DNA of 62,799 bases, filler included, from Collodictyon triciliatum (Eukaryota): NCBI GenBank assembly GCA_043381765.1. It is 30 parts of 30 records of this genome, joined end to end, with 100 filler letters (N's around TTAATTAATTAA, not from the genome) between each part and the next. Parts side by side here need not be neighbours in the genome. Positions count along the whole stretch, not along the records: positions 38,020 to 39,994 come from JBHJMP010009781.1; 29 more parts are not named here. The stretch is one strand, 5' to 3'. Under the pieces are notes generated by a model that did no database searches, was not told the origin of the DNA, and saw only the letters and a list, made by a program, of their open reading frames with translations. Positions 30,249 to 61,578 of the stretch are shown piece by piece; within the stretch, counting starts at the first letter, position 1, and the number at the start of each line of letters is the position of its first letter. Made by a program: the position numbers and the translations under genes.

Positions 30249-30307
30249 TGTGCGGCTTGTTGTAACCTTGAATCGAATAAAGGGGAAAAAAATGCGCGGC
30301 TTGTTGT
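30249..30307 (+). mobile_element. Ultra-short LINE-tail insertion with 15-bp TSD (1 mismatch)
   Basis: 29-nt insert 30264-30292 AACCTTGAATCGAATAAAGGGGAAAAAAA between TGTGCGGCTTGTTGT (30249-30263) and TGCGCGGCTTGTTGT (30293-30307). Confidence 0.9.
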
Positions 30308-32772: not shown

Positions 32773-35700
32773 TCTTTGAGTCGGCGATGATTTCTTCATA
32801 TTTGTGACTGAGAACGGCAATCAGGAGATTAATTAGAAGAATATTGAACATGAAGAGAAATCCAAAGTATAGAATTGGACCAAGAACAGGACTTGTCATG
32901 TAGATATCTTCGAAACTTAGACCACCAAACATGAAAGAGATGAAGCTGTAAATCAGATATTCAGTTGACGAAAGGTATACGACGTTTCTTCCAACAACAA
33001 CATAAATAGCAGTCCCAAAAGCAGCCATGAAGACAAATATCAATATGAGAAACATTATCATTTCTCCAAGCATTTTAAATATTACTGTCAATAACAGACC
33101 AAACTTTTCATGGACACGGAAAAAGTAAAGAAGTCTTGTCCATGCAAAGAAATTCAGTAGACTTAAAAAATTCTGCTTGATGTAGTCAAATCGAACAATA
33201 TCATGATATAAAGAAAAATCTTTCCTTGTCGAAACACCTTCAAAGTTGTGAGAAAAGGCGAGGGCATCGATGTAAATGTGAAAAAAAATTGTGAGAAATA
33301 AAGAAAAAACGATAAGCATGTCAATCCAGTTCCATCCAGAGGTCATGTACAGTTTGATTCCTTCTTCAACAATCTGGTCAATTTCATGTAAGAATAACCC
33401 AACCGCATACACAATTATCATCAGTCCGATAAAATTTAAGAATTCATCTCCACCGTAGTTGGGTCGAACAATAGTGAGAATCCTAGTGCTTACAATATTC
33501 CCACCTGAAGTTGGATATTCAATCACTTGGATGACATATGCCATCAAATCTGCATTATCACAGGCAATGAGAGCTTCTAAGAAAACGACCCTTGATTGGA
33601 TATCAAGCCATCCATCTTCCTGTAATCCATTCAGCCGTAATACTGCTTCCGTTTGGTTGATAGGTAAATCCTCAGCGAATCCACCTCCATGATACCAGAC
33701 CCTTTGCTGACCGTATACACTAACACCAGCCAGGTCACTCTCTGATATCCATTTGAATTTTTCAGAATGACCATAGCTATTTTTATCTTCATTCTCGTGG
33801 CTGAAAGAAGATAGGCATTTTGTCGTGTTCAGGGGTGAGGGTTCAGTGAGATAAGATGGCGGATAATCGTTACAATCACGCAGCTTTGAGCGGAGCTGGC
33901 GGATTCGAACCGGTGAAGCTAATCGATAGTATGCTATTTTTTCAGAATCTGTTGTAGCTTGCGAAATATTACCATAGATGCTCCATCCACTGTATGCGAG
34001 GGGAATGAAAACCGTCTCCACATAATCGAAAAGTCCCTTTGAGAGCAGATTATCATCGTCCTGATTGCCGGTGAACGTTTTCTCAAGGGTTTTAGTGAAA
34101 TAGACAGATGAGATACCGTCAGAAACGTTTTGGTTTGTTGTATAAATTGAGAGTGCAGTTAAGAAGACGATGTAGTGGAAGAAACAAAAGTAAAAGTTCC
34201 CTTGAGGTGAGGTTGAAGCCGTTGCAGTGCGATGAAAAAATTTGGCAACTTTACCAATATGCTTGTCATAAGCTTTGAATATTGCCTTTTCCTGTCTTTT
34301 ATTTTCTTCGTCTTTAGAAAATTTTTTATCATCACAATCATTTTCACCATATTTGGGATTATCAGATCCATTTTCATCTTTTTTGAGCACAGGACTCTTA
34401 TCTCCCTTATCTTCAATCTTTTTCTCATCGAAATCTTCCTTGGAACTAGCTCCTGAACCAATATAAATGTTTTCGAGGATATCTTCATCTTCGTGGGAAT
34501 TACCAGACCAAATACTGTCAACTTTTTTGGAGACATCTGGGAACGAGAGGAAATACTTCGCCTTTGCTTCTCGAGCCTTTTCGATGTAGTGCTCTGGCAC
34601 CTCGTAATTTCCTCTAATACTTTCAGATGTCTTAGATTCCTCCTCAATCAATTTCATAGCATAGTAATCGAATATTACCGGGATGCTGCGGTCTCGAATG
34701 GATAAAACCCGGAGTAGAGACAAAATTGTGAGGGCTTTTTCGATGGGGTCACGTGTATTTCCCTTTTTCCATTTCAGTATATCAATAACTGAACGTAGTT
34801 TGTCGAATTCGTAAAGATTTCTCTTCAAGCTGATGGTTTTGAGATGCATTATGCTGCATAATTCCGGTGGCAGGGCTAAAAGTATAACTTTCTATCAAAA
34901 TTTATCAAAATTCTTATAAAATTAAAGAGAAGTTCTGCCAGCGAATAAAATAAATAAAAATTTAACAGAATCGAAAAATAAGAAAAAGAATTTGATGAAA
35001 CATACCAACTTCACGTTCATGATACCACTCCTTTGCATCCTTAGATAAATCAACTGTGGGATCATCTATTATTCCTAGCTTGTTATAGTCAAGACAAAGT
35101 GTCCGGAGTTTTGATAGCTTGCTCACAAAAGATGGGACTGATGTAACCATATTATGACTCATGTCAAGCTGAATCAAATTAGTAAGATATTGAATTTGTT
35201 CGGGAAATGCATGAAACCTATTATTTGACAATGTAAGAGATGTCAATTTGGTCAGATATTTTGCAAAGTGACCCAGAGAGGTTAGCCCAACCTTCGAGAT
35301 ATCTAGGATTTTTTCACCAGTTTGAAATTTTTCCAACAATTTCTGGTCATTGATATTCGAGCATGTCAATTTTATAGTTTCTACTTCCAGAAAGTCTCCT
35401 ATGTTTTCAGGGATATGTGTAAAGTCGTTGCTTTGAATGTCCAGGGTTTTCAGTTTCTGTAAGGCGGCAAGTTCGGTAGGGATGGATGTAAATTTGTTGG
35501 AGGACATTCCCACATACTCTAGGCAACGCAAGTTTGTAAAGCTATCGGGAAGAAATTGAATCGAATTGCCGTGGAATGATAAACTCACAACCAATTTCAT
35601 ACTCATGAATATATCTGGTATCTCGTTAAGTTGGTTTCCAGAAAATGACAGGATTTTAATGGAGGTCATCGTCGAGATGTAATCTGGTAAAATCGAAAAC

Positions 35701-36210: not shown

Positions 36211-37759
<1,549 letters not shown>

Positions 37760-38019
37760 GTATATTGCCACCTAATATAACTCTCCTTTCTTTATACTTC
37801 TACTTCTACTTCTACTTCTACTTCTACTTCTACTTCTACTTCTACTTCTACTTCTACTTCTACTTCTACTTCTACTTCTACTTCTACTTCTACTTCTACT
37901 TCTACTTCTACCTCTACTTNNNNNNNNNNNNNNNNNNNNNNNNNNNNNNNNNNNNNNNNNNNNTTAATTAATTAANNNNNNNNNNNNNNNNNNNNNNNNN
38001 NNNNNNNNNNNNNNNNNNN

Positions 38020-39233
38020 ATAAATGAGGAAATAGCAGATAAGGCTTACCCATACAAAAAATAATAATGTGGAGCTATCCACTACGAATTAAATGCTCTT
38101 GGAATTACGAGTAATAATAGTACCGAAAAATAAAGGACAGCTTGAGTAAACCATCCTGCTCTAAGCAACTCAGTTCTAGCAGAGAGGGTCAATCACCGAG
38201 GTTCATGCTTCCAAAAGCCAATAGATTACCCATGGGATTTAACCTTCTGATATGGAGCTTTAGGGGATTAACGAACCCAAAGAGTAAAAGAGGCTGTAAA
38301 CGCTGCTATTTTCACTCACGCAGACATCGTCTGCCTCCAAGAAACGGCTGAGCCCTGACCACCTAACCAATAATCAAACACCTTTGAATCGAATAAAGGA
38401 AAAAACCAATAATCAAGGATGGAAAGTGCATGAATGTGGCTCTGTGACGATAATCAACACATATATGCAGGACAGTGGATAGGTGCACGTTTAGTCCATG
38501 CACCAACAACCTCTCCAGAATGCACCATGTGCCATAGTGGAGACGACTCTACCGAACACACATTTGTGAAGTACTCTCTTGCTCAAAAAGTAGCAGAATC
38601 TACCCACAAGATGCTCTCTGAGCTTGATTATGCTCCCAACCAACCCAGCGCGTCAGACATCCTGTTTGGTGCACAATAATAAATGACCCACGACTTTGGA
38701 ATACTCTGGACTGTCACAAGGGGACATATGCTGTGGTCCCTATGGAGTGTGCGTGCATTCTCTCGCACTAATGATTCACCCAAACGAGAAATCCATGTAT
38801 GCAGGCTGGAAAGCCTCGTGCAATACAGCTTCCTGAACAGCTTGCTGAAACACGCCCGCATTCTTCGCTACTCTGACCGCAAGCGAAGAGAGATGTGGGA
38901 ATGTGTCGTAAGATATCTCCCACAGCATATCCAACCCCTGCTACCCACGCAACCAATCAACCAGATGGGACGCCCGCCTGACCAACTCTCTATCACTGAT
39001 TTCTTTACAGTTGTTTCATCAGCAAATAATTTTTAATCTAGGCTCTTCAGAGTTGAGGTTATTCTCAACCCTCTCGAGTGCATAGTGATGAACCATGAAC
39101 CCAGCTTCCGTACCAAGCTGGCCTGCACTCTTATCCGACACACGTCACTGCTTTCAACCAAGGTGCAAACCAATTACGTCGGATTGTAAAAAATCTAAAA
39201 ACCCTTCCTTCCCTTGAATCGAATAAAGGGAAA
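38020..39233 (+). mobile_element. Internally deleted, decayed L1/Tx1-like LINE (ORF1 end, APE start, zinc-binding C-terminus, 3' UTR, terminal hairpin)
   Basis: 38145-38300 is similar to 60560-60728; ADIVCLQET APE motif. Jumps to WIGARL..CTMC..EH near 38476. ORF2 stop at 39036; ends CCCTTGAATCGAATAAAGGG-AAA (39211-39233). Confidence 0.85.
38365..38416 (+). mobile_element. Ultra-short LINE-tail insertion with 13-bp TSD, nested in the LINE
   Basis: 26-nt insert 38378-38403 ACACCTTTGAATCGAATAAAGGAAAA between perfect AACCAATAATCAA copies at 38365-38377 and 38404-38416. Confidence 0.92.
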
Positions 39234-40480
39234 CTCTGGGGTCGTGGATCATTTGGAGTTGCGGGCTAAACAGGATGTTGAGTGCAATGAGTCGGTTGGG
39301 AGCTTAATCAATCCCAGAGATGCTTTCCCCCCATTATGACGCTTATCAAGCCATGGCCCGAGCGTGTGTTGCCACCAATCGTATGCAATTCTGCTGGGCC
39401 CTCTTATTTATTTATTGGGTTGTTTGAACGTTTGTCTTACTATCCATTTATTTTTTTTTTATCTGCCAGGCTGCTTCGTGTACTTGTGTGTTTCCGTAGA
39501 CATCAAATCGGGGCCTTCATAATTTGTTCTTGTTGCATAATCCTTTTTTTTCCCTATATCTTAAGCTCTGAGCCTGTGTTCCATGGTTGTACGCTCTGGA
39601 GCGACTCAGACGGACTGGACTTGAGAGGTCCAGTCAGGGGACGCGATACCATAATTGAGGCACGGATGTCGCAGACAGAAAGAAATGGATATCGGGGTGA
39701 GTCCTACCGTACTTTATGGGATTTGCTTTCTTCATTTTTATTGGCGGTTGACGCTCCAAACACTTTTCAGACTAGGACGGTACACTCACCTTTTTATTTA
39801 TTTATTTTATTCTTCCTTTCAATTTTGTGCACGATGGTGGGGATGTTGGCTGGTTGGTACACTCACCTTACTCATCGGCAGGATATTTTGCCAATGACGA
39901 GTTGTGTTTTTTGAAGATGGGAAAGAGGTAGAATAGAATAGAAAAAAAAAAAAAAAACAAAGAAAGCGCCAAACGAACACAAGACCATCAGTTCNNNNNN
40001 NNNNNNNNNNNNNNNNNNNNNNNNNNNNNNNNNNNNNNTTAATTAATTAANNNNNNNNNNNNNNNNNNNNNNNNNNNNNNNNNNNNNNNNNNNNACCAAA
40101 TATTTTGTATGATAAAATTTGATCAGAACCACACTGTTCTACTATCAGAATGCTTGTGAATTCTGGCCTAAAGATTCCACTGTCTTGTAAAATGTGTGTT
40201 GAATATGTTAATTATGGAGTTTTTTTATGTATTGAGATAATTCAATATATGAAATAAATAAATAAAAATATTCCTGATAAAAATGAAACGAACAAAATTC
40301 ACAATAAGGCTTGTATATGATCTAAAATTGCGAGCGCAAAGACCCATGTGCGGTGAGATAGGGAAAAATGAGCCTATTTGGCTAGTTCGTCAGGTGCTAC
40401 TATGAAAAGCTTTTGTTAGATTCCACTAAGAAAGCATTGAAATTACTCTATCCGTAACTTTGTATATCTGAAATAATTAA

Positions 40481-40509
40481 TTTTTTGTTCCTTAATTCGA
40501 TTCAAAGTG
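40481..40509 (-). mobile_element. Ultra-short LINE-tail element (degenerate, no visible TSD)
   Basis: Minus strand CACTTTGAATCGAATTAAGGAACAAAAAA, one mismatch in the core. Confidence 0.65.
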
Positions 40510-42610
40510 CAGCGCGGTTTTGCCATACAAAGGGACGAGATAAGTGCGCCTGGTAAAAAGCAAACGCGAGTAGAAGACACCACCGTAGAAAGGCTAGCAA
40601 TATCTATAATGTTTGTTTTAAAATCTTTTCATGTCGTAAAATTCAATCACCTTGGTTTTTCGAACATCTATTCTTATAATACATCCATCACCCAATCTCA
40701 TCTGTGCTCATGTGAGAGATAAAGAAAATTTTGTAATGATAACAAAGAAGCAGAGTCTACTACTTAGAATTATATAATCAAAGAACTTATGTATTAAGTC
40801 ATGCAAAGTGTATCATACTTAATTCCGACTAATTGAAGTGTAATTTTGCGACTAAAGACGCCGCGTTGAAAGGACGACTATCTCCGGACTATTTGGAATG
40901 TATAATTGTTTGTTTAAGTTTCCAAAATATTGAGGTTTAATGTAGTAACTAATTCAACTATAAATATATATATATGTTTTTTTGGAGTCTATCCGACAAT
41001 TCAAGAGCATTATTCTTACGAATCCGCTATTGCCTTTGTTGCAGGAGTTGTGCAGTATGTCAGCTATTGCTCGTAATCTGCTGGATACTAAATGTGAATT
41101 GATCAATAAAAACGGTTTCTAAAGTTGAAAGAATTCAATATATATAAATAAAGAATGGGGTAGTAAATATCAAAACAGTAAATAGAGTAACCACTTCCTC
41201 ATCACGCAGATTTCTTCCTCTTCGATGGTTGCAAATGTTCGAACAAACAATTAATGTTGCGTATTATCTGATTTTTATTATTGTGAAATTATGTCATCTC
41301 ACATGTATTAAAAATCGATTCTTCGATATAATTTGTTATTATAAAGTTACATTATTACATTTCCGGTGCCAAATGATCAGCTTCAGTCGCAGGGATGCAG
41401 TCATTATAGATGAACTTTATCCTCCCTTTTTGGCCATAGCTCAACCATTTTCTCTATCCTATGGACAGTGAGGGTCATTTAAGGTATTGTTTATAATAGC
41501 ATGACTAATAGAAGTAAATATTGTCATATATTTTGATACGGCCTGCGGTTGATGAAAAAAACTTAACAATGGTAATAAAAAAATAATGATAAATAACTCA
41601 CCTCCTACCCTAAATCATAGAGATACCCCGAGCACAATAAACGATGAGGGGCTTAGTCTGTTATCCTGATAGTATGCTCCCAGGCATGTTAAATTGACGG
41701 CAGCTTCGCTTGATAAAAAAATAAAAATATAGAGGGAGGAAGGCATATAATTATTATATAGATCAGAATATGTTGTATTTTTTCACTAGTACGTGAATCC
41801 CATAAAAAGCCTGGGTTGAGAAGAGATAGGCAAAAAGATCAAAATAACCGAAATGATGGCAAGTATGTGGCTAAATGAGATGTACTTGATGTTTGCATCT
41901 TTGGATAAATCCGTCCAAGAGAGTGCGATGTGGACAACAGAGTAACCAATGTCTCAGTCGCCGTCATGCCCGTGAAAATTATCCCAAGCTGCACGTGATG
42001 GGATTAGAGCTCAATATACACCATAAATAATAATAAAACTAAAGCTATAGCTATGAAGATAAAAGAATNNNNNNNNNNNNNNNNNNNNNNNNNNNNNNNN
42101 NNNNNNNNNNNNTTAATTAATTAANNNNNNNNNNNNNNNNNNNNNNNNNNNNNNNNNNNNNNNNNNNNGAGTTTTATTGATGCCTTTATTCTTGCAGTAA
42201 TGTGCATATACGAGTTTCATAAACGAGCTTCATATGCCTTAACCACATTATTTTTCTTTCGATTTTAAATGACTAGAATCACTAGCTTATCATTCCCCTG
42301 CATGAAAACTATTCACTACGATTGTGTCGCAGTGCTTTATAGATTATTTTATTTGTTTCCCTGAATATATAAATTGAACATATAGGGCCGTGTTCTCGTT
42401 CCGTCTGCTGCAGATGAAACAGGGGATTTCCCTACTGGTTTTTATTTAATTCTATAAATCATTTTTGAATATATACATATTAGAAAGCTAGAATCAAATT
42501 CATAAGCAACCGCCAGGACGGCAGTCTTTTGAAAAAAATATATGTTGTTTCATAATTCGAAAACTGATAATTGCTCCTAACCATTATCGTGATTGGTCGA
42601 AATTCTTAAG

Positions 42611-50465: not shown

Positions 50466-52437
50466 GAAAAAAGTGAATGCTTATCATGTCCAGCCGGTAC
50501 ATTCAACAATAAAACTGGCTCACACAATCAATCATCATGTATTTCATGTCCAAATGGAAGCTACAGCTCAGAAAGAAGCTCATCATGTAGTTTATGCTTA
50601 TCAGGATTCTATCAAAAAGAAGGAATCACAAAAGACTCACAATCATGCTACGCTTGTCCGAAAGGAACATTCAACTTGAACTCCGGCTCATATGGAAACA
50701 CATCATGCATACAATGTCCACAAGGGACTTGGAACGATAAAAATGGTCTAGCATCATGCACATCATGTCCAGCTGGGACATTCAACAAAAAAACTGGCTC
50801 ATTTGATGTATCATCGTGCATTTCATGTCCAAATGGAAGCTACAGCTCAGAGAGAAGCTCATCATGTAGTTTATGCTTATCAGGATTCTATCAAAAAGAG
50901 GGAATCACAAAAGACTCAAAATCATGTCATGCCTGTCCAATAGGCACATTCAACTCGAACTCTGGCTCATATGGAAACGTATCATGTATTGAATGTCCAC
51001 AAGGCACTTGGAATGATAAGGATGGTCAAGCGTCATGTACATCATGTCCAGCTGGTACATTCAACAATAAAACTGGTTCATTCAATCAATCGTCGTGTAT
51101 TTCATGTCCAAACGGAAGCTACAGCTCAGAGAGAAGCTCATCATGTAGTTTATGCTTATCAGGATTCTATCAAAAAGAGGGAATCACAAAAGATTCACAA
51201 TCATGCTATGCTTGTCCAAAAGGCACATTCAACTCTAATTCCGGCTCATATGGAAACACGTCATGCATACAATGTCCACAAGGCACTTGGAATGATAAGG
51301 ATGGTCAAGCATCATGCACAGCATGCCCAGCCGGTACATTCAACAATAAAACTGGCTCACTCAATCAATCATCGTGTATTTCATGTCTTAATGGGAGCTA
51401 TAGCTCAGAAAGAAGCTCATCGTGCAGTTCATGTCCTTCAGGATTCTATCAAAAAGAGGGAATATTAAAAGACTCAAGCTCATGCTATGAGTGTCCAAAA
51501 GGCACTTTCAACTCGAACTCCGGCTCATATGGAAACGCGTCATGCATACAATGTCCACAAGGGACTTGGAACGATAGAGATGGTCAAACATCATACACAT
51601 CATGTCCAGCTGGTACATTCAACAATAAAACTGGCTCACTCAATCAATCATCGTGTATTTCATGTCCAAATGGAAGCTATAGCTCAGCTGGAAGCGCACC
51701 ATGCAGCTTATGCTCATCAGGTTACTACCAAAAAGAGGGAATCACAAAAGATTCACAATCATGCTACGCTTGTCCAAAAGGCACATTCAACTCTAACTCC
51801 GGCTCATATGGCAACACATCATGTATCGAATGTCCACAAGGCACTTGGAATGACAAGGATGGTCAAGCATCATGCACATCATGTCCAGCTGGCACATTCA
51901 ACAACAAAACTGGCTCATTCGATGAATCATCGTGCATTCCATGTCCAAATGGAAGCTACAGTCCTGAAAGAAGCGCATCATGCAGCTTATGTTCATCAGG
52001 TTACTACCAAAAAGAAGGAATCTCAAAAGACTCACAATCATGTCATTCTTGTCCAAAAGGCTCATTCAACTCAAACTCCGGCTCTCATGGAAACAAATCA
52101 TGCATTAAATGCCCACAAGGGACTTGGAATGATAGAGATGGTCAAGCATCATGCACATCATGTACAGCTGGGACATTCAACAACAAAACTGGCTCATTTG
52201 ATGTATCATCGTGCATTCCATGTCCAAACGGAAGCTACTGCTCAGCTGGAAGCGCATCATGCAGCTTATGCTCATCAGGTTACTACCAAAAAGATGGAAT
52301 CACAAAAGACTCACAATCATGCTACGCTTGTCCAAAAGGCACATTCAACTCAAACTCCGGCTCATATGGAAACAAATCATGTATTGAATGTCCACAAGGT
52401 ACTTGGAATGATAGAGAGGGTCAAGCATCATGCACAT
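50466..52437 (+). CDS. Cysteine-rich tandem-repeat (GCC2/GCC3, ephrin-receptor-like) surface protein, internal fragment
   Basis: Frame open across the whole contig. CxxCPxGT(F/W/Y) repeats organised in a 279-nt (93-aa) unit, about 7 copies, with many N-x-S/T sequons. Confidence 0.88.
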
Positions 52438-58756: not shown

Positions 58757-60728
58757 CCACAATTATAAAAGTGCGATTGAGAACGGACTCTTCAAAGACG
58801 AAGACTGCTTTGTCCGCCTTCGGGGCAAGAAATGGCCGGTTCTCTCTTTCGCAAACCGTAGTAATATGTGCAAGCAACTGCGGGAGGTTATGGAAGCCCG
58901 AAAGTGCTACGAGAAGGACGTGACACTTATGGTGGACAGCCCTGCCCTCGGACTCAGGATCGCCTTCCCAAGAAAAGAAAACGCAGCCGCCTTCATTAAG
59001 GAGAGATCTTTCCAGCTCCTCAACCACCTTTATACCCCCATGCCAGCAAAAACTGTCACAAAGGTTGCGCACCTGTCTAACATACCGCTGGGGGTCAGCT
59101 GGACTGACATTTTCGAAGCCTGCAGTGAATACTTCACCCCAATCAAAGTCAACTGGACAAAGCCTGGAGGAATATGCATGAATGATGCACTCGTTACTTT
59201 TGACGAAGAACGGGAAAAAATGGGGAAAATACCTACCTTTGTCGTCATTCATGATAGACGCTGTGGCGTGGAGATACGCGCCCTCAAAGAGTCTGACATC
59301 CCATCAACTCTCCCCAACAAAGAAGGGTATGACACAAAAGGTCAAACCACAAAGAAGAACTGCTACTGCCAAGCCGATGTCCATCAATCAAGCGGCCACC
59401 AACAAACAAAACACCGCCACCCGCTTCTCAGGGGTTCAACACAAAAGAAACCGACTTCAGCGCTAAAGACTGACCAACCTTGCAGGAATCATCTGTGCAA
59501 AACAAGCCCAGAGCCCACAAACAAGGCCAAAGGCAACACGCGTTTCGTCTTCTAGCACCAGAGGGAGAAATCGTGACAAGACACCCGCACATGAAGTGCT
59601 CGAAGTCTCAATCAAGACAAAGGTTCAAGAGCGGCCCCAAAATCAAGAAACAGATATCGAAATGATGGACGAATCATCAGGCGATTTGCCCGAAAGTGCT
59701 TCATCAAGTTCGCCGATGAACATAGAGAAAGCAGTATCAATCGTGGAATGGCTTCGAAGTGGAGGAAACATCGCTAGTCTTTAAGATTTCCAACCTGCTC
59801 AAGCCGCTGATATCTCACCAAGCTCACCTTTAAACCATGGAGAGGACGCCGAGGAAAGGGAAACCCAAGCCAACTCGGTAACAGAATCGGGGAACAGCAT
59901 AATGGCACCCAGCAAACCACACCCGCCTACCTCCTTAGAGGGCATGGCTCCTGGGACCACTCAAGAGACTCTTTCTTCAGCAAGTACTGCGCAATCCATA
60001 ACAAACAACGTCCCAGACTCGGGATTGGAAGAACAACAGTCCATCCAACCTGTCGTCGTCATAGAAGGTTCTGCTGAGGAAGAAAGTGAGCACCTTGAAG
60101 CTTCGGGATCGACAAACTACTCCTCAAGTACTGTTTGTGGGAGCAGACCTGCTGTCGAAACTCTTGCGACTCCCCAGCGAGAAACGACTTCCTATCCAAG
60201 AAAAAGAACCGTAGACGAATATAAAACACCGGTTACTCATCCTGCAAACACTGGCGCACCAAAAAAGACCGAAACCGTCGAAGATAAAGCCTCGCCCGAG
60301 GAATAGAGAATGAATCAGTCAAGTACACCACCGAATATAGCGAGCCAGAGAGCAAGCCAGAATGAAAGTAGAAACATGGGCAACCCTGCCTACCGTGTGG
60401 ATTAGGGGAAAAATTGGAACCGAGGGTTTCTAGTGACCGACAGAGTGCATCTCCCAACACACCAGCTACAAAGGGGTTGCAGCCCAAAGTCCAAAACCAT
60501 CCGACAAATCCTGGCCGAACCGCGAGCAATTATACTAGCGGCCGAATGAAGGATAACTCGAGTAAACCATCCCACTCTGGGCAACCCAGCTCCAGCGGAG
60601 AGGACCAATCACCGGAGGCTACGGTCTCCAAAAGCCAATAGATTATTAATGCGTTTTAACGTTCTGTCGTGGAACGTTAGGGGGATTAACGACCCCCAAA
60701 AAAGAAAAGAGGCCCTAAACACTGCTCT
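58757..60728 (+). mobile_element. L1/Tx1-like LINE: decayed ORF1 (RRM-like plus S/T/P-rich) and start of ORF2 APE endonuclease
   Basis: ORF1 pieces broken by stops and frameshifts, ending TAG at 60641. ORF2 ATG at 60649 reads MRFNVLSWNVRGINDPQKRK, the APE motif I. Confidence 0.9.
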
Positions 60729-61520
60729 NNNNNNNNNNNNNNNNNNNNNNNNNNNNNNNNNNNNNNNNNNNNTTAATTAATTAANNNNNNNNNNNNNNNN
60801 NNNNNNNNNNNNNNNNNNNNNNNNNNNNTCTTTTTCTTTTTTCTTTTCTTTTTTCTTTTCTTTTTCTTTTTCTTTTTCTTTTTCTTTTTCTTTTTCTTTT
60901 TCTTTTTCTTTTTCTTTTTCTTTTTCCGTTTTCACATAAGGTGTTCCAGTGGATTGAGTTTGCTCAACGCGAATGGCCGCGGCTGACAGCGCACGGAGTC
61001 TATCCTGTTTGCTTTTTTATGCGTATTTTCGCGAAATTAAGATGCTTTTATTGATAGAATTTTGATTTTATGTGAAATCAGACATGCTCCAGAGAAAAAT
61101 AAACCAATAGTTTTACGTTGCATGCACATTTTGTCCTATTTTTTTTAACAAAGAAACAAAACAGATCAAAACAAAACAAAACAAAACAAAAATGGATATG
61201 TTTTATAACTCAAATTACATGTTTTGTAAAACTATTGGAGTAGAAACAAAGTTTACTCATCGAAGCGAACCTCGTATACAATCAACGCATAGGCCTTCAC
61301 GTATCTGCATGATTATCTGATTTCACGAGTCTATCTGGCAGATTCTCAGTTTTCAATTGCTGATGCAGTCGTATTTGACCTTGTTTATTCTGGATTCGTT
61401 AGATTTTCCACATCTATTTGTTAACATAAAGACACCATTATTATTTTATTAACAGAGAAATACATCTCTGGCAAATTCTTTATCGTTTAATCTTTACAGA
61501 AATTACTTTAACTATCTGTT

Positions 61521-61578
61521 AAATACAATATTCAAATTACTTTGAATCGAATAAAGGAAAAAAAAATACAATATTCAA
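61521..61578 (+). mobile_element. Ultra-short LINE-tail insertion with 15-bp TSD
   Basis: 28-nt insert 61536-61563 ATTACTTTGAATCGAATAAAGGAAAAAA between perfect AAATACAATATTCAA copies at 61521-61535 and 61564-61578. Confidence 0.92.

Follow-up and report, generated by a model that had tools for sequence, protein, structure and literature searches.

At positions 38020–39994 of the window, by which we mean the whole 62,799-nt stretch of DNA analysed, a LINE-derived sequence ends in a short box of potentially pairing letters, and similar boxes recur outside the LINE. The question raised by this locus is whether the box is the signal by which the reverse transcriptase (RT) of the LINE recognises its RNA, as an earlier note on this DNA had proposed, and whether such a box can be retroposed on its own. 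The parts of the window are joined by N44-TTAATTAATTAA-N44 linkers, one per ~2.08 kb (for example 60729–60828), and the TTAATTAATTAA-bearing linkers carry stops in all six frames. As the window is a chain of ~2-kb contigs, the copies of the motif lie on separate contigs and the term resident LINE is valid only within 38020–39994; features across a linker are no genomic neighbours. Apart from two exceptions, the parts are ordered by steadily falling size, from ~1990 nt down to 1975 nt, and long A or T runs stand at or near contig ends (10228–10348, 20100–20187, 44352–44396 and 58625–58656), and it is in such runs that the assembly seems to be interrupted. The contigs, which are eukaryotic and have ~34% G+C, carry genes for a polycystin channel, LRR, GPS and Ephrin_rec_like proteins and a protein kinase. 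Large open reading frames without introns encode the polycystin-type channel (32774–34891, minus strand) and a protein with 16 Ephrin_rec_like repeats and NCD3G (50466–52436, plus strand), while the protein kinase exons at 36600–37920 (plus strand; HRDLKSANI and DFG motifs in translation) are separated by introns of ~100 nt or longer that contain long trinucleotide repeats (37030–37170 and 37800–37919).

The stretch 38125–39233 is a rearranged LINE copy. Its 5′ part (38125–38474, plus strand) contains an AP-endonuclease start recognised by eye only; about 60 first codons of this domain are present in the window (38200–38474 and 60640–60728), and Pfam returned no match to them. An internal deletion at 38474/38475 fuses this part to the C-terminus of ORF2, and loose ends of contigs were found before 38475. 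The ORF2 C-terminal region (38475–39036, plus strand) comprises the last ~185 codons with a zf-RVT-like CCHC, has two in-frame stops near 38677, matches Pfam zf-RVT weakly (14.3 bits, E 0.066) and is 92% identical up to 39011 to L010, a metagenome locus described below. Further fragments of the family lie at 24453–24639 (minus strand; ORF2, 95% identical to L010) and 60545–60726 (plus strand; 5′ fragment with AP-endonuclease start, 77% identical to 38129–38307), both cut at a contig end, and at 39235–39320, where an inverted, older ORF2 fragment (minus strand, 79% to L010) begins one base past the A-run of the plus-strand copy. Insertion of the plus-strand copy into an older minus-strand LINE was considered and rejected, as that LINE does not carry on in the DNA left of 38125. 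All window copies, and L010, are fragments that lack the RT (RVT_1) portion.

A protein search among 1.84 billion representatives returned 14 proteins at E ≤0.001, among them seven close fragments and four full-length relatives with ~30% identity; a sister family, represented by P0002 and P0016, is 62% identical; a search for longer homologous proteins gave no match. The L010 C-terminus passes the Pfam zf-RVT cut-off (32.4 versus 27.5 bits), and P0001, P0002 and P0004 score 29–36 bits for the same domain. Exo_endo_phos and RVT_1 are found in all four full-length relatives (P0009–P0012) and zf-RVT in three of them, and the best match of P0009 among solved structures is human L1 ORF2p (E 3e-57, versus 1e-23 for R2). 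On the basis of this domain architecture we call the element L1-like; it appears to be an AP-endonuclease-type LINE of a freshwater eukaryote, with the match of P0009 as a proxy for its place in the L1 clade. The hallmarks of non-LTR elements, an A-rich 3′ end, target-site duplications and 5′ truncation, were all found.

The ORF stop of the LINE, TAA at 39034–39036, is followed by 174 nt and then by CCCTT (39211–39215), GAATCGAATA (39216–39225), AAGGG (39226–39230) and AAA (39231–39233). This terminal box (39211–39233, plus strand; variant B, CCCTTGAATCGAATAAAGGG followed by AAA) is the end of the LINE-derived stretch. A copy nested within the LINE, at 38381–38405, reads CCTTT-GAATCGAAT-AAAGG-A6, and a copy at 30264–30292 reads AA-CCTT-GAATCGAATAAAGGGG-A7. 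All three sequences are as the earlier note had described them, including a spacer that it gave as ~175 nt and an AATAAA (39221–39226) that overlaps the 3′ arm. The 22-nt word CTTTGAATCGAATAAAGGAAAA matched the window seven times at up to 3 mismatches (15844+, 19889−, 30266+, 38382+, 39212+, 40507− and 61540+) and had no match in 100 dinucleotide shuffles. The consensus of the box is C(C/T)TTGAATCGAATAAAGG(G), 18–20 nt long, followed by a short A-run.

Five of these seven matches, all but those at 39212 and 40507, are tiny insertions of 26–32 nt in total, each built of 0–4 extra letters, an 18–20-nt box and an A-rich run of 5–10 nt. The nested micro-element (38378–38405, plus strand) reads ACA-CCTTTGAATCGAATAAAGG-A6 and lies between two copies of AACCAATAATCAA (38365–38377 and 38404–38416); an X2 contig spans it (38371–38521) with 2 differences. 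The copy at 30264–30292 (plus strand) has a B-like tail, AA-CCTTGAATCGAATAAAGGGG-A7, with the duplication GCGGCTTGTTGT at 30252–30263 and 30296–30307. The copy at 61536–61563 (plus strand) reads ATTA-CTTTGAATCGAATAAAGG-A(n) between copies of AAATACAATATTCAA (61521–61535 and 61564–61578), and the one at 19862–19889 (minus strand) reads CTTTGAATCGAATAAAGG-AAAAAGAAAT between copies of AAATTGGTTTCCACA (19890–19904 and 19847–19861). Four of the five short copies are thus directly flanked by complex direct repeats, of 12, 13, 15 and 15 nt; in a control, a repeated word of at least 11 nt was found at 62 of 1782 random positions (3.5%), mainly in simple repeats. The fifth, diverged copy (the one at 15846; 15844–15867, plus strand) has the changed loop GAGTCG, lies in A-rich low-complexity DNA and is without a clear duplication. 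In L1-type elements, the combination of an A-run with 12–15-bp duplications is the established mark of target-primed reverse transcription by a LINE that has its own endonuclease.

All five short copies begin 4–8 nt upstream of the G in GAATCG, a span of 4 nt at the edge of the box, which bears out the proposal that the short copies start near the 5′ base of the stem. Five of the seven ends in the window stop at this one point, 18–22 nt from the A-run, so that box-only copies are the commonest class, and no window copy ends between 30 and 110 nt. Among the joints listed for the contigs of runs X4 and X18, there are joints at 38405 with a 24-letter side, which suggests more box-only copies beside other repeats. 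The copies, at 26–32 nt, have neither a SINE-type pol III promoter head (tRNA, 5S or 7SL derived) nor a body, and an Rfam search of the window returned nothing at gathering score, LINE 3′ element models included. A miRNA row in that search was at chance level (E 0.79), and a likeness of the box to a tRNA T-loop was rejected, since the two differ in the crucial first letter of the loop and agree in no other feature. Together with the locus L010 described below, these data show that the box is the terminus of the LINE, that the box-only insertions are products of target-primed reverse transcription and that their 5′ edge is sharp.

The window being a chain of short contigs, one might suspect that the box is an adapter, an assembly chimera or a chance repeat. 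The lack of any match in 100 shuffles, the complex target-site duplications around the copies and the provenance of L010 from a different collection argue against an artefact, as do contigs from other runs that cover the nested copy (2 differences) and the end at 39233 (5 differences), and we regard this explanation as hardly credible. These contigs come from four metagenome runs (X1, X2, X4 and X18 among their codes) that were aligned onto 38020–39994. Freshwater and lake runs include contigs near-identical to parts of this stretch; a 269-nt X1 record differs from it at 5 positions and 151-nt X2 records at 1–2. In the four-run alignment, 39406–39735 is without contig cover, and the depth in the bin 39208–39273 is given without a split into box-only contigs and those that would carry UTR plus box.

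If the box is the LINE's terminus, other copies of the LINE should carry it too, as the earlier note had recognised. When metagenome contigs were searched for the box followed by an A-run, 18 loci came up, of which one, L010, is real and independent of the window data; the other 17 are chance matches with no A-run beyond the pattern, four of them being one and the same sequence. The same scan of viral contigs gave two matches, both chance, and that of genome contigs gave six, all on large Bacteroidota contigs and judged chance by record titles; viral contigs also held no match to a word of the L010-type UTR and no relative of P0015. On its minus strand L010 is 92% identical to 38475–39011. Its ORF2 stop, TAG, lies 18 nt past the point equivalent to 39011, and the 74-nt 3′UTR that follows cannot be aligned with 39012–39208, but it terminates in ...ACA-CTTTGAATCGAATAAAGG-A10. 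The window stretch ~40469/40480–40599 (minus strand) is 82% identical to the L010 3′UTR, which identifies the seventh copy of the motif (40480–40599, minus strand; ~120 nt, starting T-GCTAGCC and ending in CTTTGAATCGAATTAAGG plus an A-rich run) as a 5′-truncated LINE end rather than a micro-element. We refer to the 3′UTR of L010 and of this copy as type A and to that of the LINE at 39012–39208 as type B. Both other LINE 3′ ends that were found, L010 and 40480–40599, thus end in box and A-run, and the box is carried by all three LINE 3′ ends seen, across two unrelated UTRs.

Type A is likely the original form. At least five X4 contigs, at least five X18 contigs and at least one X2 contig have loose ends behind 39011 that read GCTAGCC..., the L010-type UTR, which makes type A the majority form; related ORF2 proteins end in ...ITDFFAVL..., comparable to ...ITDFFPVL... 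in L010, which indicates that it is also the older one. The type-B spacer (39012–39208, plus strand) consists of the last ORF2 codons and a 3′UTR unlike that of type A. Within it, 39042–39193 (152 nt) has ~86% identical counterparts in contigs of 345–917 nt from X4 and X18, where the flanks on both sides are different, so that this part of the presumed 3′UTR is a separate repeat. The 3′UTR at 39037–39208 is therefore probably a minority form of composite origin, and the end of type B could be either a subfamily that arose by recombination or a chimera produced by template switching. In X4 and X18 the end of ORF2 itself recurs many times over; its summed word depth, which does not equal copy number, reaches ~1900–1970 and falls to ~20–35 past 39010. 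On the same contig a repeat of ~55 nt at 39794–39850 reaches a summed word depth of ~1900 (X4) and ~1070 (X18), equal to that of the LINE ORF2 end; contigs diverge from it on either side, and it has no second copy within the window.

Alternatively, box and A-run might themselves be the preferred template, as a small RNA or a protected 3′ fragment, and longer ends would arise by RT jumps to other RNAs; the type-B end at 39012–39233 would then be a chimera, born of template switching or of a separate micro-insertion, and no LINE subfamily. The other flanks of 39042–39193 would fit this, and no target-site duplication was found around the copy at 38125–39233 or the box at 39211. The junction 39011/39012 is moreover a recurrent breakpoint: the two types part here, and the 40599 (minus strand) copy has its first letter at this point, which may be another preferred site of RT stops or template switching. 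Three of the four clean 5′ junctions of short copies carry two to four extra letters, and site-specific switching is known for the fungal LINE MGL, in the part of that report concerned with it (PMC2104539). The B-like tail (CCTTG...GGGG) of the micro copy at 30266, however, shows that the B tail propagates as a variant rather than marking a single accident, and type-A LINEs end in the box as their normal terminus in both copies (L010 and 40480–40599). We consider the preferred-template account quite improbable. At 39211 itself, where the spacer is atypical and the copy lacks its own target-site duplication, the box could be a separate event at that one locus. The ORF2 stop follows six to eight codons after the 39011/39012 junction.

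The claim that the micro-element is the LINE's terminal hairpin held in part: it is the LINE's terminal module, but a strong hairpin is found at one place only. A 7-bp hairpin with a 10-nt loop (UUCCCUU / AAGGGAA, −8.4 kcal/mol) is predicted at 39209–39232 (plus strand) and is present in both the MFE and the centroid fold of 39100–39236 (z −2.4). No other copy folds convincingly; for the common tail the values are −0.3 to −3.1 kcal/mol, with an MFE of 0 for its 18-nt core. In the L010 UTR the MFE fold leaves the box unpaired, and neither of the two type-A UTRs folds better than shuffled sequence (z +0.6). The case for a hairpin is accordingly weak, the predicted fold being convincing only in the minority B variant.

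The earlier note had further suggested that stem variants keep pairing, and had proposed covariation analysis of the hairpin as a check. Read as strings, the variants do retain pairing: in an alignment of eight tails a 4-bp core can pair in all eight. The columns are nearly invariant, however, with three pairs that do not vary and a fourth that is C-G in two tails and U-G in six, splitting two sublineages. No pair within the element varies on both sides in these eight tails, a sample of low power, so that no compensatory change was seen; the covariation score was reached by 57 of 500 shuffles, and registers slid by +2 and +3 scored higher. As the shuffle and slide controls were not exceeded, retained pairing is without statistical support at this low power. 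Eight tails from two sublineages are a small sample.

The same alignment points to the box as a sequence unit. Sixteen columns are invariant in all eight tails. The A and B tails thus agree in 16 core letters, yet their UTRs have nothing in common upstream of the box. Similarity between the two types begins at column 9, the same place at which the micro-copies start (give or take their 0–4 extra letters), and this coincidence of two independent boundaries defines the box as the unit. The A-run follows directly after GG(G) in seven of the eight tails, without a variable spacer (the copy at 30268 has one additional G), which fits initiation positioned by the box. Extra letters at 5′ junctions are typical of an RT running off the end of its template, and the 2–4 extra letters at three of four clean junctions fit an RT that had reached a template end.

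These features have to be weighed against a relaxed, L1-like mode, in which the A-run alone is recognised, the box is kept as a polyadenylation signal in young copies and the micro-elements are abortive products of RT pausing or RNA decay. The AATAAA within the box alone could explain part of its conservation, the common tail has no stable hairpin, the eight tails gave no sign of covariation, and the distant relative P0009 is closest to human L1 ORF2p. In X4 and X18, word depth climbs steeply toward the 3′ end of ORF2, so that the short copies could be the tail of a steep truncation profile. Yet AATAAA covers just 6 of the 18 conserved letters, A and B UTRs that share nothing upstream have identical core letters in the box, all five short copies end within 4 nt of one another, and the window holds no copy of intermediate length (30–110 nt). 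Recognition of the A-run alone, the main rival reading, seems to us less likely but quite conceivable.

We consider it somewhat better than an even chance that the 18–20-nt box is the stringent-like 3′ end of an L1-like LINE, at which the ORF2 protein engages the RNA and at whose 5′ edge the cDNA often stops. By analogy with stringent LINEs, we infer that the ORF2 protein would engage its RNA at the box, that priming would take place in the adjoining A-run, and that cDNA synthesis would often end at the 5′ edge of the box, leaving box and A-run alone to be integrated. Such a stop might arise because the bound protein blocks the handover to elongation, because RNA upstream of the protected box is trimmed, or because the box edge is a hot spot for pausing and template switching. 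A role of the box as an RT recognition signal and as a free-standing minimal substrate, as the earlier note had proposed, is a reasonable supposition. A stronger form of it, that box and a few A's are the complete natural substrate for target-primed reverse transcription, that the box is portable, working on unrelated 3′UTRs, and that the ORF2 protein has left its footprint in the sharp edge of the micro-elements, we put forward only tentatively and consider doubtful; here the upstream RNA would have been trimmed, or the RT would have been unable to leave its bound site.

To our knowledge, template choice by LINE reverse transcriptases is settled for few elements only. Human L1 has broad truncation lengths and chooses its template by poly(A), and the tails of UnaL2 and ZfL2 are of the (TGTAA)n type, that of the present LINE being an A-run. 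The 5′-truncated insertions of human L1 resemble those described here in their AP-endonuclease nick, A-run priming and duplications of ~12–15 bp, and the two elements have in common an AATAAA at the extreme 3′ end and frequent 5′ truncation; unlike human L1, the present LINE has most of its window ends at a single point. L1-clade LINEs with conserved 3′ hairpin ends are known (PMC3472496). According to the sections of that report on monocot and green-alga L1-clade LINEs (LINE1-1_ZM and L1-1_CR), their conserved 3′ end of ~45–50 nt is followed by poly(A) (Ohshima 2012, PMC3472496) and forms a solid hairpin with compensatory changes that is shared with SINEs (PMC3472496). As described there, these elements are like the present LINE in being L1-like, in having a conserved 3′ end plus A tail proposed as an RT template signal, and in a 3′ end far better conserved than the rest (PMC3472496). 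The present LINE differs from them, so far as those sections describe them, in that its box is 18–20 nt, its common stem has 4–5 weak pairs, no compensatory change or SINE partner was seen, and the box alone is retroposed (PMC3472496).

In the L2 clade, according to the passages on this point, the ORF2 protein of zebrafish L2 (ZfL2) binds its cognate 3′ stem-loop by experiment (Hayashi 2014, PMC4176376), and UnaL2 and ZfL2, of eel and zebrafish, carry a stem-loop with a specific loop beside the terminal repeat where reverse transcription starts (PMC4176376). These elements belong to another clade, and binding is experimental there whereas the present case is known from sequence alone (PMC4176376). 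For the Magnaporthe LINE MGL, the passages on its chimeric retrocopies describe site-specific RT template switching near hairpins, with recurrent position-specific cDNA ends, as here, that are ascribed to RT pausing or jumping; parts of MGL of 230–5461 nt are fused to other RNAs there, whereas the present product is a bare 18–20-nt tail (PMC2104539). In a shallow literature search, tail-only LINE copies of 20–30 nt did not come up. Two features are unusual here: the unit measures just 18–20 nt, and copies of the box alone outnumber the other ends in the window.

What the finding means depends on which reading is correct. If the box is merely a pause site and poly(A) signal, the micro-elements are ordinary, though extreme, 5′ truncation. 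If box and A's are indeed the complete substrate, they would rank as the smallest retrotransposition tag known from nature and would give a direct handle on template choice by an L1-type RT. If the box is the recognition site, that site would have been mapped naturally twice, by the convergence of two UTRs and by insertions that keep nothing else; it would then provide an 18–20-nt candidate tag with which RNAs might be channelled into target-primed reverse transcription, and the LINE would offer an L1-like enzyme of stringent-type behaviour for comparison with human L1.
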